From Escherichia coli (GTDB taxonomy: Bacteria; Pseudomonadota; Gammaproteobacteria; Enterobacterales; Enterobacteriaceae), in NCBI RefSeq assembly GCF_016026235.1, contig NZ_CP065613.1: DNA of 64,000 nucleotides; one strand, written 5' to 3'. A model generated the notes under the pieces. That model saw only the letters and a program-made list of their open reading frames with translations, was not told the origin of the DNA and did not search any database. Shown here piece after piece: positions 19,367 to 50,132 of the stretch; positions within the stretch are counted from its first letter, which is position 1; each line of letters starts with the position of its first letter. Both the position numbers and the translations under genes were made by a program.

Positions 19367-20299
19367 TTAGTTTTCCAGTACTCGTGCGCCCGCCGTATCC
19401 AGCCGGCAAATATGAACAAAACCTTCCTGATTTTGCAGGTAGTTCTTACCCAACCAGTCGGCAACGCGCTGGGCGGTATCCGGCTTGTCACATAGAGCGA
19501 ACAAGGTCGGGCCGGAGCCGGAGATACCGCTCGCTACCGCGCCGATTTCCGCGACCGCCTGCCGCGCCTGCCGGAAGCCAGGCAGTAACCGTTCACGGTA
19601 GGGTTCAGCGATAACATCTTTCATCAGCTTCGCGGCAAGCTCAGGCTGACGGGAATAGCAGGCGTGAATGAAGCCAGCCAGATGTCGCCCGTGCGCAATG
19701 CAATCCTGGCGGCGATACTGCGCCGGTAAAATAGCCCGGGCTTCTGCCGTCGAGACTTTAATTCCCGGATACGCCAGCACCCACAGCCACTCATCAAACC
19801 CTGGCACTTGCTGGCTGATGATGTCGTTTTCTTCGATCATCAACTGCATACCACCAAGAAAACACGGTGCCACGTTGTCGTAATGAATGCTGCCGGAGAT
19901 ACGTCCTTCCAGCTCGCCCATCAAAGCCAGCAAACGGGTGTCATTAAGTGGCTTGCCGCAGTGTTCATTCATCGCCATCAGCGCCGCGACCACCGAACAG
20001 GCGCTGGAGCCTAAGCCCGAGCCGATCGGCATATTCTTTTCCAGAGTCATCGCCACTGGAATTTGCTTGCCCAGCTCCAGGCAAAAACGCTCCCAGCACT
20101 GATAAACGATATTTTCCCGTGGTTCTGACGGCAGCTTATCGGCAAAGCGTCCGAGGTTGTTGAGACTGAATGTCTCTGCCGCCTCAACCGTGACTACATC
20201 TCCGAGCAATGCACCATCAACGGGTGTCACCGCCGCCCCGAGCACATCAAACCCGACGCTCATATTGGCACTGGAAGCCGGGGCATAAACTTTAACCAT
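19367..20299 (-). CDS. thrB: Homoserine kinase
   Basis: [21 protein letters not shown]..., 310 aa. Confidence 0.97.
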
Positions 20300-20300
20300 G

Positions 20301-22763
20301 TCAGACTCCTAACTTCCATGAGAGGGTACGTAGCAGATCGGCAAAGACACCAGCAGCGGTAACGTCATTGCCCGCACCATATCCGCGCAGCACCAACGGC
20401 AGCGGCTGATAATAGTGGCTATAAAAGGCCAGGGCGTTTTCGCCATTTTTCACTTTGAACAGCGGATCATTCCCATCCACTTCGGCAATCTTCACGCGGC
20501 AGACACCATCTTCATCAATATTGCCAACATAGCGCAAAACTTTTCCTTCATCACGGGCCTTCGCCACGCGCGCGGCAAAGAGATCGTCGAGCTGTGACAG
20601 ATTCGCCATAAAAGCGGCAACATCACCCTCGGCGTTAAACTCTGCGGGCAGCACAGGTTCAATTTCAATATCCGCCAGCTCCAGTTCACGTCCCGTTTCA
20701 CGAGCGAGAATCAATAGTTTACGCGCCACATCCATACCAGAAAGATCATCTCGCGGGTCCGGTTCGGTATAACCCATTTCCCGCGCCAGCGTGGTCGCCT
20801 CGGAGAAACTCATGCCTTCGTCTAACTTGCCGAAGATATAAGAAAGCGAACCTGAAAGAATGCCGGAGAACTTCACCAATTCATCACCTGCATTGAGCAG
20901 ATTTTGCAGGTTCTCAATAACCGGTAATCCAGCCCCAACGTTGGTGTCATAGAGGAATTTACGCCGCGATTTTTCCGCCGCATAACGCAACTGATGATAG
21001 TAATCCATCGACGAGGTGTTGGCCTTTTTGTTCGGCGTGACAACGTGGAAACCTTCGCGCAGGAAGTCGGCATATTGATCCGCCACTGCCTGGCTGGAGG
21101 TGCAGTCAACAATGACCGGGTTCAGCAGATGATATTCTTTCACGAGGCGAATTAAGCGCCCGAGATTAAACGGCTCTTTGGCTTGTGCAAGTTCTTCCTG
21201 CCAGTTTTCCAGATTAAGGCCATGCACACTAGTGAGCAGAGCCTTCGAGTTGGCAACGCCGCAGACACGTAAGTCGATATGTTTATTCTTCAGCCAGCTT
21301 TGCTGACGCTTCAGTTGCTCCAGCAGCGCACCGCCAACGCCACCGACGCCAATCACAAACACTTCGATAACCTGATCGGTATTGAACAGCATCTGATGAG
21401 TAACGCGCACGCCAGTGGTCGCATCATCGTTATTTACCACGACAGAGATTGAGCGTTCAGAAGATCCCTGAGCAATGGCGACAATGTTGATATTGGCGCG
21501 GGCCAGCGCGGCAAAGAATTTCGCCGAGATCCCACGCAAGGTGCGCATACCATCACCTACCACCGAGATAATGGCCAGCCGTTCCGTCACCGCCAGCGGC
21601 TCCAGTAAGCCTTCTTTCAGTTCCAGGTAGAACTCTTCCTGCATTGCCCGTTCAGCCCGCACACAGTCGCTTTGCGGAACGCAGAAACTGATACTGTATT
21701 CGGAAGATGATTGCGTAATCAGCACCACGGAAATACGGGCGCGTGACATCGCGGCAAAGACGCGCGCCGCCATGCCGACCATTCCTTTCATCCCCGGGCC
21801 GGAAACGCTGAACATTGCCATGTTATTCAGATTGGAAATGCCCTTGACCGGTAATTCGCCTTCATCACGACTGGCACCAATGAGCGTACCTGGTGCTTGA
21901 GGATTTCCGGTATTTTTAATCAGGCAAGGGATCTGGAACTGGGCGATGGGGGTAATGGTGCGGGGGTGAAGAACTTTAGCGCCGAAGTAGGAAAGCTCCA
22001 TCGCTTCCTGGTAGGACATCGACTTCAACAACCTCGCATCGGGCACCTGACGCGGGTCGCAGGTATAGACCCCGTCAACGTCCGTCCAAATCTCGCAACA
22101 ATCGGCGCGTAAACAGGCAGCCAGCACCGCCGCGGAGTAGTCGGAACCGTTGCGTCCAAGTACCACCAGTTCGCCTTTTTCATTACCGGCGGTGAAGCCT
22201 GCCATCAGCACCATGTGATCAGCCGGAATACGACTTGCCGCAATACGGCGGGTGGACTCAGCAATATCGACGGTAGATTCGAGGTAATGCCCCACTGCCA
22301 GTAGTTTTTCGACCGGATCGATAACGGTAACGTTGTGACCACGCGCTTCTAACACGCCGGCCATAATGGCGATCGACATTTTCTCGCCACGGCAAATCAG
22401 CGCAGCGTTAATGCTATCCGGGCACTGCCCTAACAAACTAATGCCATGCAGGACATGTTTTATTTGGGCAAATTCCTGGTCGACGAAAGTTTTCAATTGC
22501 GCCAGCGGGAATCCCGGCTGGGCGGCGGCGAGTCCCGTCAAAAGTTCGGCAAAAATACGTTCGGCATCGCTGATATTGGGTAAAGCATCCTGGCCGCTAA
22601 TGGTTTTTTCAATCATCGCCACCAGGTGGTTGGTGATTTTGGCGGGGGCAGAGAGGACGGTGGCCACCTGCCCCTGCCTGGCATTGCTTTCCAGAATATC
22701 GGCAACCCGCAGAAAACGTTCTGCATTTGCCACTGATGTACCGCCGAACTTCAACACTCGCAT
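20301..22763 (-). CDS. thrA: Bifunctional aspartokinase I / homoserine dehydrogenase I
   Basis: [20 protein letters not shown]..., 820 aa; the ORF-track start at 22805 is an upstream extension. Confidence 0.97.
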
Positions 22764-43985: not shown

Positions 43986-45230
<1,245 letters not shown>

Positions 45231-45260: not shown

Positions 45261-46583
45261 TTATTCGCTGATACGGCGATAGACAGTTGGTGTGCTTTCC
45301 GGTGCTTTATCGGCAAGTTTAATTGCCGCTTTCACCGCTTTCGCCGCTTCCTGCCAGCTGTTTTCGTCTTTCGCGTGGATAACCGCCAGCGGACGCTGAC
45401 CGTCTACCTGGTCGCCCAAACGCGCCATATCAGTAAAGCCGACGCTGTAATCAATGGTGTCAGATGCCTGACGACGACCGCCGCCCATTGCAACCACTGC
45501 CATCCCCAGCGCGCGGGTATCCATTTCACTGACAAAACCTTCGGTATCAGCATAGACTGCTTTCGTCAGCATCGCTGTCGGCAGATACTTCGCGTAGTTC
45601 TCAACGAAGTCGGTTGGGCCTTTTTGTGCCGCTACCATACGACCAAAGACTTCTGCCGCTTTACCGTTGTCCAGCACTGCTTGCAATTTCGCGCGCGCTT
45701 CGGCGTCATCTTTCGCCAGTTTGCCGGAGATAAGCATCTCCACGCACAGCGCCATCGTGACATCAAACAGACGCGGGTTACGATACTCACCCGTCAGGAA
45801 CTGCACCGCTTCACGAACTTCAACCGCGTTACCTGCACTGGAGGCCAGTACCTGATTCATGTCGGTGAGCAGCGCGGTGGTGCGCACGCCAGCGCCGTTA
45901 GCCACGCCAACAATCGCTTCGGCAAGGGCTTCAGAGAGTTCGTAGGTCGGCATAAACGCGCCGCTACCCACTTTCACGTCCATCACCAGCGCGTCCAGAC
46001 CTTCCGCAAGTTTCTTCGCCAGAATAGAGGCGGTGATCAGCGGGATGGAGTCCACGGTTGCGGTAATATCACGGGTCGCGTAGAAACGTTTATCCGCCGG
46101 AGCCAGTGAGCTGGTCTGACCGATAATCGCCACGCCGACGTCTTTAATAATTTCGCGGAAACGGTTGTCATCCGGGAAAATGTCGAAGCCAGGGATGGAT
46201 TCCAGTTTGTCGAGCGTACCGCCAGTATGACCGAGGCCGCGACCAGAGATCATCGGAATATAGCCGCCGCAGGCTGCGACCATCGGCCCCAACATCAGCG
46301 AAGTCACATCGCCGACGCCACCAGTGGAATGTTTATCAACAATCGGGCCATTCAGATGCAGGCTTTTCCAGTCGAGAACGGTTCCTGAATCTCGCATCGC
46401 CATGGTCAGCGAGACACGCTCAGGCATTGTCATATCGTGGAAGAAAATGGTCATCGCGAGGGCGGCAATCTGCCCTTCGGAGATAGTGTTGTCGCGAATG
46501 CCGTTGATAAAGAAACGAATTTCTTCATCGCTCAGTGCATGACCATCACGTTTTTTACGAATAATTTCTTGTGCGAGAAACAA
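45261..46583 (-). CDS. deoA: Thymidine phosphorylase
   Basis: [44 protein letters not shown]...; 440 aa. Confidence 0.97.
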
Positions 46584-46611
46584 GGTAACCTCCCGAGGAA
46601 AAGAGTATGAG

Positions 46612-46700
46612 GCGGCTTTTGCCGGATGCGTCTACGCCTTATCCGGCCTACGGGTAGATACGTCTCGTAGGCCTGATAAGCGCAGCGCATCAGGCGTAAA
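46612..46700. repeat. REP element pair
   Basis: TGCCGGATGCGTCTACGCCTTATCCGGCCTAC ... GTAGGCCTGATAAGCGCAGCGCATCAGGCG. Confidence 0.7.
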
Positions 46701-46709
46701 GCATCTTAC

Positions 46710-47489
46710 TTAGTAGCTGCTGGCGCTCTTACCGTCACCGTGGCCCAGCGCTTTCAACAGGCTTGCCAGCAGGCTGGAAGCACCAAAGCGGTAGTGACGC
46801 GCATCTGCCCAGTCAGCACCGAACAGTTCATCTGCGATGGCGAGATATTTCTGCGCATCTTCCGCAGTACGCACGCCGCCCGCTGGTTTGAAACCAACGG
46901 TTTTTTCTACGCCCATATCACGGATCACTTCCATCATGATGCGCGCGCTTTCCGGCGTCGCGTTCACAGCCACTTTACCGGTAGAGGTTTTGATGAAGTC
47001 CGCACCCGCTTTGATGGAGATTTCAGACGCTTTACGGATCAGCGCTTCGTCTTTCAGTTCGCCGGTTTCGATGATCACTTTCAGCAGTACGTTAGCCGCA
47101 GCGCAAGCCTCTTTACAGGCTTTCACCAGGTCAAAACCAACCTGCTCGTTACCCGCCATCAGCGCGCGGTACGGGAACACCACGTCAACTTCATCGGCAC
47201 CGTAGGCGATTGCCGCACGGGTTTCTGCCAGCGCAATGTCGATGTCGTCGTTACCGTGTGGGAAGTTAGTTACCGTAGCGATACGGATTTCCGGGGTGCC
47301 CTGCTCTTTCAGAGTTTTGCGAGCAATCGGGATAAAGCGAGGATAGATACAGATAGCGGCGGTATTGCCGACCGGAGTTTTGGCCTGATGACACAGGGCG
47401 ATCACTTTCTCGTCGGTGTCGTCGTCATTCAGGGTGGTCAGGTCCATCAATTTCAGTGCACGCAGGCTGCTTGCTTTCAGATCAGTCAT
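46710..47489 (-). CDS. deoC: Deoxyribose-phosphate aldolase
   Basis: [54 protein letters not shown]...; 259 aa; AGGAG Shine-Dalgarno. Confidence 0.97.
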
Positions 47490-47533
47490 TTCATTCTCCT
47501 GGCTTGTCGCCAATAAAATTCACCTTGCGAGTT

Positions 47534-47549
47534 TGTTAGTATTCTAACA
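47534..47549. promoter_or_regulatory. DeoR operator (deoO2-like) overlapping a TAGAAT -10
   Basis: TGTTAGTATTCTAACA, a 16-bp palindrome about 45 bp upstream of the deoC ATG. Confidence 0.65.
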
Positions 47550-47746
47550 TCTACTCCGCAACACACTTCGATGTACATCACAATTAAGGAAATCTACTTA
47601 CAAGTTTGCATCACTGTAATGCGATCTGGTTCAAATAATTCACTTTCAAATGAATGCGTCAGTGGTGGCAAACGCATCAGGATCAAAGTGAACATCACGA
47701 AACTTCTTACAATGGCGCATCACCTTCGGCATAAAAGGAAAAGAAG

Positions 47747-49297
47747 ATGCCCACTTCTCATGAAAATGCACTGCAACAACGTTGCCAGCAAATTGTCACC
47801 AGCCCGGTACTTAGCCCGGAGCAGAAGCGCCATTTTCTGGCACTGGAAGCAGAAAACAATCTGCCTTATCCGCAGCTTCCTGCCGAAGCCCGCCGCGCGC
47901 TGGATGAGGGGGTAATCTGCGATATGTTTGAAGGTCATGCGCCGTACAAACCGCGCTATGTCTTACCCGATTACGCCCGTTTTCTGGCGCACGGTTCCGA
48001 ATGGCTGGAGCTGGAAGGCGCGAAAGACCTTGATGACGCACTCTCTCTGCTCACCATTCTTTACCACCATGTACCGTCGGTCACATCGATGCCGGTCTAC
48101 CTGGGGCAACTGGATGCGTTGTTGCAACCGTATGTTAGAATTCTAACGCAAGACGAGATCGATATTCGAATAAAACGTTTCTGGCGTTACCTCGACAGAA
48201 CCCTGCCAGATGCCTTTATGCACGCCAATATCGGCCCGTCTGATTCGCCCATTACCCGCGCAATCTTACGTGCAGACGCAGAGTTGAAGCAGGTTTCACC
48301 GAACCTGACCTTTATCTACGATCCTGAAATCACCCCTGATGACCTGCTGCTGGAAGTGGCGAAGAACATCTGTGAATGTAGCAAACCGCACATCGCCAAC
48401 GGTCCGGTGCATGATAAAATTTTCACAAAAGGGGGCTACGGGATTGTGAGCTGTTACAACTCACTGCCGCTGGCGGGTGGTGGCAGCACGCTGGTACGCC
48501 TAAACCTGAAAGCCATTGCCGAGCGCAGTGAATCGCTGGAGGACTTCTTTACGCACACTCTACCGCACTACTGCCAGCAGCAGATCGCCATCATCGATGC
48601 GCGGTGTGAATTCCTCTATCAACAATCACACTTCTTTGAGAATAGCTTCCTGGTGAAAGAAGGGCTGATTAACCCTGAACGTTTTGTGCCAATGTTTGGC
48701 ATGTATGGGCTGGCGGAAGCGGTTAACTTGCTGTGTAAGAAAGAAGGGATTGCCGCGCGCTACGGTAAAGAAGCCGCCGCAAATGAAGTGGGTTATCGCA
48801 TCAGCGCGCAACTGGCGGAGTTTGTCGCCAATACCCCCGTGAAATATGGCTGGCAAAAACGCGCCATGTTACACGCACAGTCGGGGATCAGTTCCGATAT
48901 CGGCACCACGCCGGGCGCGCGTTTGCCGTATGGTGATGAGCCAGATCCGATCACCCATCTGCAAACTGTCGCCCCGCATCATGCTTATTATTATTCCGGC
49001 ATCAGCGACATTCTGACGCTCGACGAAACCATCAAACGTAATCCGCAGGCGCTGGTACAGCTTTGCCTCGGTGCCTTTAAAGCCGGAATGCGTGAATTTA
49101 CTGCCAATGTCAGCGGTAACGATCTGGTTCGCGTTACCGGTTATATGGTGCGTTTGTCGGATTTAGAAAAATATCGCGCCGAAGGTTCACGCACCAACAC
49201 CACCTGGCTGGGCGAAGAAGCCGCACGCAACACTCGTATTCTGGAACGCCAGCCGCGCGTGATAAGCCATGAACAGCAGATGCGCTTTAGTCAGTAA
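47747..49297 (+). CDS. yjjI: DUF3029 glycyl-radical-enzyme-like protein YjjI
   Basis: 516 aa, K-12 synteny; adjacent to the radical-SAM activase gene. Confidence 0.9.
48133..48148. promoter_or_regulatory. DeoR operator (deoO1-like) with TAGAAT -10
   Basis: TGTTAGAATTCTAACG, exactly 599 bp from the 47534 site, which is the classical deoP1-deoP2 operator spacing. Confidence 0.6.
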
Positions 49298-50132
49298 GAT
49301 TATCCCCTTCTCCTGCGTTGACGGGCCAGGCAGTCGTCTGGCTCTGTTTTTGCAGGGCTGCAATCTGCGCTGCAAAAACTGTCACAATCCGTGGACGATG
49401 GGACGTTGCAATGACTGTGGGGAGTGCGTGCCACAGTGTCCGCATCAGGCGTTGCAGATTGTTGACGGCAAAGTGGTGTGGAACGCAGTGGTTTGCGAGC
49501 AGTGTGATACCTGCCTGAAGAGGTGTCCGCAACATGCCACGCCAATGGCGCAATCCATGAGCGTGGACGAAGTGCTTAGCCATGTCCGCAAAGCGGTGCT
49601 GTTTATTGAAGGGATAACGGTAAGCGGCGGCGAAGCCACGACCCAACTGCCGTTTGTAGTGGCGCTGTTTACTGCTATCAAAAACGATCCGCAACTGCGC
49701 CACCTCACCTGCCTGGTGGACAGTAACGGCATGTTGAGCGAAACCGGCTGGGAAAAATTACTCCCGGTGTGTGACGGCGCAATGCTCGATCTCAAAGCGT
49801 GGGGGAGCGAATGTCATCAGCAATTAACCGGACGCGATAATCAGCAGATTAAGCGCAGCATCTGTTTGCTGGCAGAGCGCGGTAAGCTGGCGGAACTGCG
49901 TTTGCTGGTGATCCCTGGCCAGGTGGATTATTTGCAACACATCGAAGAACTGGCGGCGTTTATCAAGGGACTCGGCGATGTTCCGGTACGCCTGAACGCG
50001 TTTCATGCCCACGGCGTGTATGGCGAGGCGCAAAGCTGGGCGAGCGCCACGCCGGAAGACGTTGAGCCGTTGGCTGATGCGTTAAAGGTGCGCGGGGTGA
50101 GCCGGTTGATATTTCCGGCGCTCTATTTGTGA
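49269..50132 (+). CDS. yjjW: Glycyl-radical enzyme activating protein YjjW (radical SAM)
   Basis: Cys-rich motifs ([10 protein letters not shown], CxxCxxC ferredoxin-like); 287 aa. Confidence 0.9.

Follow-up and report, generated by a model that had tools for sequence, protein, structure and literature searches.

Strong synonymous constraint on yjjI from the upstream half of the deoCABD control region in Escherichia coli

The 64-kb window (i.e., the whole stretch of DNA analyzed here) holds the E. coli deoCABD/yjjI-yjjW region. On the minus strand, deoC (46710-47489; identified by TIGR00126 and the annotation) opens the regulated deoCABD operon and is followed on the same strand by deoA (45261-46583) and then deoB (43986-45209). 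The plus strand carries yjjI (47747-49297), coding for a 516 amino acid YjjI-family glycyl radical enzyme (TIGR04040, PF11230, and the RefSeq annotation) in which a motif search for RVxG[FWY] placed RVTGY, the C-terminal glycyl radical motif, at residue 462. Directly downstream lies yjjW (49269-50132, plus strand) encoding the adjoining YjjW-family glycyl radical enzyme activase (TIGR04041, 397 bits); the first 29 nt of yjjW overlap the 3' end of yjjI. The deoC and yjjI genes are divergent, with the deoC ATG at 47489 and a 257-bp spacer between them. This gene order (minus-strand deoB, deoA, and deoC; plus-strand yjjI and yjjW) was the same in the RefSeq annotation and in strain K-12 MG1655, and the whole deo/yjjI region was 99% identical to K-12. 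The region 46600-49400 was matched in 5,424 of 5,426 complete E. coli genomes, most of them at 95-99% identity, and the closest genome was that of strain FDAARGOS_943 (99.8%).

Two DeoR operators were identified on the minus strand of the locus. The operator overlapping deoP2, O2 (47534-47549; TGTTAGTATTCTAACA on the plus strand and TGTTAGAATACTAACA on the deo strand), is identical to that of K-12, intergenic, and 45 bp from the deoC ATG. The operator overlapping deoP1, O1 (48133-48148; TGTTAGAATTCTAACG on the plus strand and CGTTAGAATTCTAACA on the deo strand), begins 386 nt into the yjjI reading frame, where it occupies codons 129-134 (YVRILT). Each site differs at one position from the canonical O1 palindrome TGTTAGAATTCTAACA, their start-to-start spacing is 599 bp, and they were the only matches to TGTTAGAATTCTAACA with three or fewer mismatches in the 64-kb window (shuffle mean 0.17). 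The DeoR palindromes quoted in the literature are TGTTAGAA-TACTAACA and TGTTAGAA-TTCTAACA (PMC5326754); O2 in the window equals the first exactly, and O1 equals the second except for one private base. Set against the DeoR operator consensus TGTTAGAA(T/A)(T/A)CTAACA, O2 was identical to the published form, O1 had one mismatch, and the more distal site OE (see below) had four. DeoR represses both deoP1 and deoP2, which are separated by 599 bp (PMC3334521), and DeoR binds the single operators O1 and O2, approximately 600 bp apart, at these tandem promoters (PMC8053113), an arrangement with 599-bp separation that is also supported elsewhere (PMC8053113; PMC5326754). Based on the published palindromes and spacings, the site at 47534 was assigned to O2/deoP2 and the site at 48133 to O1/deoP1, and, judged from their sequence, the palindromes are very probably the DeoR operators of E. 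coli deoCABD. The initial annotation had described two palindromes 599 bp apart in the classical deoP1/deoP2 arrangement, each overlapping a TAGAAT element on the deo strand and the upstream one about 390 bp inside the 516-codon yjjI ORF, and all of these points were borne out. A full-text literature search with the operator strings returned no relevant match, and the O1/O2 insert sequences were not found as text in the supplement of the Loopometer paper.

The TAGAAT hexamer is present on the deo (minus) strand in both operators, at 47541-47546 following TGT in O2 and at 48140-48145 following CGT in O1. The former belongs to the extended -10 element of deoP2, TGT TAGAAT (47541-47549, minus strand), in which T-12, A-11, T-7, and the TG at -15/-14 were invariant across genera. 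The deoP1 -10 element together with its TGn position (48140-48148, minus strand) reads TGT-TAGAAT in K-12 and other species, with TGT changed to CGT in the window. The deoP1 upstream region (48149-48190, minus strand) extends from -16 to about -57 and across yjjI codons 135-148, containing a weak -35 (CGAATA) and the A/T-rich CGTTTTAT. The regulatory module of deoP2, also on the minus strand, includes the CRP-1 site TGTGATGTACATCGAA (47567-47582) that has two spacer SNPs compared to K-12, the CytR operator region containing ATGCAAAC (47583-47619), and the CRP-2 site TTTGAACCAGATCGCA (47620-47635) with its center 53 bp from the CRP-1 center. In an alignment of 12 genera, both CRP sites and the CytR region between them formed conserved blocks. 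CRP-1 corresponds to the CRP ChIP-seq peak motif of the yjjI/deoC spacer in ETEC (PMC4287617) and the CytR/CRP architecture of deoP2 has been described (PMC3454398).

Transcription from deoP2 would start at 47534, the last base of O2, and by analogy transcription from deoP1 would start at 48133, with predicted equivalents in K-12 (NC_000913.3) at ~4617278 and ~4616679, respectively. A start at 47534 would put the CRP centers at -40.5 and -93.5, the textbook positions for deoP2; a full-text literature search for the deoP2 CRP positions gave no relevant match. The genome-wide transcription start site supplements of Kim 2012 held no deoC or yjjI entries, and those of Ettwiller 2016 held no coordinates matching the proposed deo starts. 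A -35 element near TTGACA was found in neither promoter (the CGAATA hexamer being the best candidate for deoP1), and a generic promoter and terminator scan of 47300-48700 therefore called neither deoP1 nor deoP2. This outcome does not count against either promoter, and the lack of a -35 element would be in keeping with promoters of the extended -10 and activator-dependent types, with deoP2 dependent on CRP.

A third site, OE (48412-48427, no strand assigned), was identified by alignment to K-12 and a 4-mismatch scan as the distal DeoR operator within yjjI codons 222-227. On the deo strand it reads TGTGAAAATTTTATCA, with four mismatches to the O1 palindrome, and its distance is exactly 279 bp to O1 and 878 bp to O2. 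The former distance is reportedly the value given in papers of 1986-87. The assignment of OE was based on position and conservation, since a 4-mismatch match by itself is expected ~2.4 times per window by chance. OE has been described as “about 300 bp further upstream,” with loops between all sites seen by electron microscopy (PMC8053113), and looping in deo is stated to act over “up to 900 bp naturally” (PMC4217526). This third classical operator, 279 bp beyond O1 and likewise inside yjjI, had been overlooked in the initial annotation.

The O1 site of the window is a private one-base variant of the canonical palindrome, a feature that had also escaped the initial annotation. Its first deo-strand position is C compared to T in K-12, FDAARGOS_943, and 74 of 74 other species, such that the deo-strand half reads CGTTAGAAT vs. 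the canonical TGTTAGAAT. On the plus strand the private base is G48148, a synonymous change from ACA to ACG in yjjI Thr134. It falls on the outermost operator position and on -15 of the proposed deoP1, the T of the extended -10 TGn. The canonical O1 61-mer had exact matches in 2,147 E. coli genomes, and neither the 61-mer nor the 30-mer of the window across O1 matched any of the 5,426 complete E. coli genomes. The change may be a real regulatory variant or a sequencing error; it lies at a position of the operator and extended -10 that is otherwise invariant, and could alter deo regulation.

Conservation across species was analyzed in the best 80 yjjI loci from other species, Klebsiella not being among them. 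Synonymous constraint was evaluated in 68 deoC-adjacent sequences from Enterobacteriaceae, Hafnia, and Edwardsiella by computing synonymous codon entropy in 6-codon windows, of which 511 span yjjI. The deoC gene was divergent from and adjacent to yjjI in Hafnia, Edwardsiella, and every Enterobacteriaceae locus with enough flanking sequence. The lowest entropies in the gene coincided with the operators, as OE occupied ranks 1-2 (0.018) and O1 rank 3 (0.105) of the 511 windows compared to a gene mean of 1.10; the only other stretch of comparable conservation was the yjjI/yjjW overlap. K-12 and 50 of the 68 other deoC-adjacent species have O1 as the perfect palindrome TGTTAGAATTCTAACA, and OE was identical in 56 of the 68, while the O2 half TGTTAnAAT on the deo strand was invariant in the 12 genera. 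Conservation around O1 continued for ~40 nt on the deo-upstream side only and ended on the other side, with the deoP1 upstream region (codons 135-148) having synonymous entropies of 0.33-0.42 relative to the same gene mean. This one-sidedness is as expected of a promoter directed at deoC. At OE, conservation was limited to the site itself and displayed no asymmetry. The deo-strand half TGTTAGAAT of O1 was intact in 70 of 74 other species (the exceptions being two Edwardsiella that read TGTTAAAAT and two loci with the last base changed), and most changes were located in the other half of the palindrome.

The codons of O1 are non-preferred ones, with AGA accounting for 4.8% of Arg, CTA for 2.9% of Leu, and ACA for 8.9% of Thr codons; given the peptide VRILT, the string GTT AGA ATT CTA ACA has a probability of 1.5e-5 under local codon usage. 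Hafnia and Edwardsiella, with a 457-473-bp spacer, maintained O1 with one or two mismatches and in the same codons, so the arrangement is older than the Enterobacteriaceae. The OE-O1 distance was 279 bp (93 codons) in every genus, and the O1-O2 distance varied from 567 to 626 bp and was mostly 596-604 bp. Strict helical phasing of O1 and O2 was considered and rejected due to this 567-626 bp range across genera.

The operator constraint was absent where yjjI is not beside deoC. Four Proteus species carry yjjI away from deoC, which was not present within 4 kb, and in these genomes the gene follows ytjB, serB, and radA. The positions of O1 and OE in these species had 6-12 mismatches and encoded the peptides YVG(E/N/S)LT and QDAVFG, with synonymous sites differing among the species, providing a natural control. 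Residue 131 was Gly in Proteus, Hafnia, and Edwardsiella compared to Arg or Lys where O1 is perfect, and the OE peptide QDAVFG of Proteus contrasted with NDKIFT in species having OE. The operators may have reshaped the YjjI sequence itself. The 16-bp operator stretches in yjjI carry two types of information, both under purifying selection. Synonymous variation in yjjI is strongly constrained by the upstream half of the deo control region, which probably also exerts some non-synonymous constraint.

Because yjjI starts 257 bp from deoC and runs the opposite way, deoP1, O1, and OE fall within its reading frame, and the initial annotation had offered two readings: a promoter and operator lying inside coding sequence, or a wrongly called yjjI start. 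A true gene beginning downstream of 48148, which would leave O1 and deoP1 in non-coding DNA, could draw on the weak conservation of the first 10 codons (amino-acid entropy 1.81) and on a yjjI start that is seemingly displaced by a few codons in some genera. It is nevertheless vanishingly improbable, as TIGR04040 (786.6 bits vs. a cutoff of 498.3) already aligns from residue 11, matching YjjI residues 11-504 to profile positions 1-497 of 497, and PF11230 aligns to residues 22-504. In addition, the start codon (ATG, 47747) and its purine-rich Shine-Dalgarno sequence were conserved in the alignment of 12 genera. Codons 11-128 had entropies of 0.31/0.22/1.22 at codon positions 1/2/3 (68 sequences), a pattern indistinguishable from that of codons 148-221 and 229-505, and OE would be intragenic under any plausible start. 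Of the 130 N-terminal codons singled out for scrutiny in the initial annotation, codons 11-128 thus varied like the rest of the gene. Consequently, the embedded alternative stood and the mis-called start did not: deoP1, O1, and OE are embedded in genuine yjjI coding sequence.

Conservation at codons 129-134 and 222-227 could instead serve yjjI itself, for example via an mRNA hairpin formed by the palindrome or a programmed pause in translation at AGA and CTA, both rare codons. The perfect O1 palindrome could fold in mRNA and the site holds two of the rarest E. coli codons, but a role of this kind is very unlikely for several reasons. The sequences are experimentally defined DeoR palindromes (PMC5326754; PMC8053113), and the Proteus genes have neither the palindrome nor the rare codons and vary freely. 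Furthermore, the conservation is asymmetric toward the -35 side of deoP1, and a near-invariant TGTTAGAAT with changes concentrated in the opposite half fits a promoter and not a hairpin. The sites might also be chance matches or non-functional relics, and 4-mismatch matches such as OE do arise at the frequency given above. Against this, matches with one or no mismatch are expected ~0.0007 times per 64 kb and two were observed at the published spacing, and the sites were invariant at synonymous positions in ~70 species, making coincidence or decay scarcely credible. Selection on deo regulation acting through DeoR operators and deoP1 inside yjjI is the reading retained below.

The best-supported mechanism is the classical one, in which deoP1 and deoP2 are tandem sigma-70 promoters directed at deoC on the minus strand and deoP2 is additionally activated by CRP at its two sites and anti-activated by CytR. 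In the literature, DeoR is a multimer of six to eight subunits and binds two or three of O1, O2, and OE together, with OE acting as a weaker third operator beyond O1. Looping out of the DNA between the bound operators then shuts deoP1 and deoP2 jointly, and induction follows when deoxyribose-5-phosphate releases DeoR, in line with the binding and release reported for this regulator (PMC5326754; PMC8053113). From the geometry of the locus, RNA started at deoP1 would run antisense to the 5' region of yjjI as well as to its first 386 nt. A candidate yjjI promoter, with TACAAT at 47708-47713 and GGATCAAA, which is invariant, at -39 to -35, falls inside the loop that DeoR would form between O1 and O2 and is also covered by the transcription unit of deoP1. 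Looping by DeoR, together with antisense RNA from deoP1, might conceivably tie the expression of the orphan YjjI/YjjW pair to deoxynucleoside availability, a coupling that is regarded as speculative and rather unlikely.

Two further candidates for yjjI control were rejected. The plus-strand face of O2, TGTTAGTAT, was considered as a DeoR-controlled yjjI promoter and was unsupported, as many genera read TGTGAGTAT or TGTGACTAT with loss of the -12 T while TGTTAnAAT on the deo strand is invariant. A full FNR site upstream of yjjI was likewise dismissed, since only its promoter-proximal half (ATCAA within GGATCAAA) was conserved and the distal half was not.

The deo regulatory architecture, including the sites inside yjjI, has been known since 1982-1989. 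The operators and looping were reportedly established by Valentin-Hansen (in 1982 and 1986), Dandanell and Hammer (in 1985), Dandanell (in 1987), and Amouyal (in 1989). This work on K-12 deo is summarized in later publications (PMC8053113; PMC3334521; PMC5326754). Operator deletions made in the 1980s reportedly cost the operon its full repression. The K-12 deoCABD control region has the same locus, operators, 599- and 279-bp spacings, and deoP2 CRP/CytR module as the window, which differs from it by the private O1 base (G48148) and the two CRP-1 spacer SNPs. What is new here is only the demonstrated strong synonymous constraint on yjjI from the deo control region. The locus represents a clean and quantifiable bacterial case in which coding and regulatory information overlap, and a lineage without the neighboring operon serves as its natural control. 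Genome annotators and recoders should note that synonymous edits to codons 129-148 and 222-227 of yjjI would fall on deoP1, O1, and OE. Several synonymous changes are available in O1, but few in OE if its peptide is to be retained.

Auxiliary operators within coding sequence that loop with a promoter-proximal operator include lac O2 within lacZ and gal OI within galE. Like both, the deo system carries an auxiliary operator within an ORF. In lac and gal, however, the internal operator lies within the leading gene of the very operon under control, whereas deo places two operators and a complete promoter in a divergent and functionally unrelated gene. Looping in the lac, gal, and deo systems has been discussed together (PMC4217526). 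The locus is also comparable to dual-use coding sequences in which transcription factor sites lie within ORFs, as yjjI likewise has synonymous variation suppressed over the sites and non-preferred codons retained. It differs from other dual-use cases in that its binding sites were experimentally defined decades ago and that Proteus serves as a natural control.

A third DeoR operator (OE) was identified at 48412-48427, within codons 222-227 of the yjjI glycyl radical enzyme gene, where the deo strand reads TGTGAAAATTTTATCA. OE lies on the far side of the deoP1 operator O1 at a distance of exactly 279 bp and displayed the lowest synonymous variability anywhere in yjjI. This operator was missing from the sites listed in the initial annotation. 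The sole further site in the window with four or fewer mismatches to the DeoR palindrome was TGTCAGACTCCTAACT (20299-20314), which is probably meaningless as approximately 2.4 such sites would be expected by chance.

Other conserved stretches were also present in yjjI. Low synonymous variation was identified at 48629-48649 (codons 295-301, HFFENSF; entropy 0.26, rank 6 of 511 six-codon windows), a segment that contained no operator-like sequence and that may reflect mere codon bias since it is made up of two-fold degenerate codons. The longest yjjI run with nucleotides conserved at 95% or above was CAGATGCGCTT (49277-49287), situated inside the 29 nt overlap with the activase gene yjjW (49269-49297) and immediately after the yjjW ATG.

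Differences at the known deo regulatory sites included a base private to the window at 48148 (+ strand G, deo strand C), the outermost position of O1 and position -15 of the inferred deoP1, that turns the Thr134 codon of yjjI from ACA into the synonymous ACG. None of 74 other species and none of 5,426 complete E. coli genomes carried this base, which could be a true regulatory variant or a sequencing error. Two adjacent SNPs compared to K-12 were identified at 47574-47575 in the 6-bp spacer of CRP-1, the proximal CRP site of deoP2, where the spacer region reads GTGTAT in K-12 vs. GTACAT in the window and a third version, GTATAT, occurs in ETEC H10407; the core half-sites were unaltered by these SNPs.

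A second CRP ChIP-seq peak, located within yjjI at a distance of 544 bp from the intergenic one, has been attributed to the motif TGTGACCGACGGTACA (PMC4287617), which is read on the deo strand at 48070-48085 inside yjjI, approximately 55 bp downstream of O1. No synonymous conservation was detected at this CRP-like motif (entropy 1.29-1.49 in the bins for codons 101-120) and therefore, the peak might stem from cross-linking via the DeoR loop and not from a CRP site under selection.

A candidate yjjI promoter was located at 47673-47721, within the O1-O2 loop and antisense to deoP1 transcripts, including a TACAAT (47708-47713) almost invariant across 12 genera and an invariant GGATCAAA (47680-47687) that places ATCAA at approximately -39 to -35. 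This would be the expected place of the proximal half-site for a class II activator of the FNR/CRP family, and an FNR motif and anaerobic nar co-expression have been tied to yjjI (PMC3228777). Conservation of the activator site was confined to this half-site, with the other half not conserved.

Comparison with the Proteus loci L079-L082 (e.g., L080 528-6374) revealed the gene order radA, serB, ytjB, yjjI, and yjjW, with the deo operon absent between ytjB and yjjI. The Proteus yjjI codons matching the O1 and OE positions displayed no constraint, and this gene represents a natural control for operator constraint. In this comparison there is a hint of yjjI having been joined to the deo operon, or parted from it, after the split from Morganellaceae.
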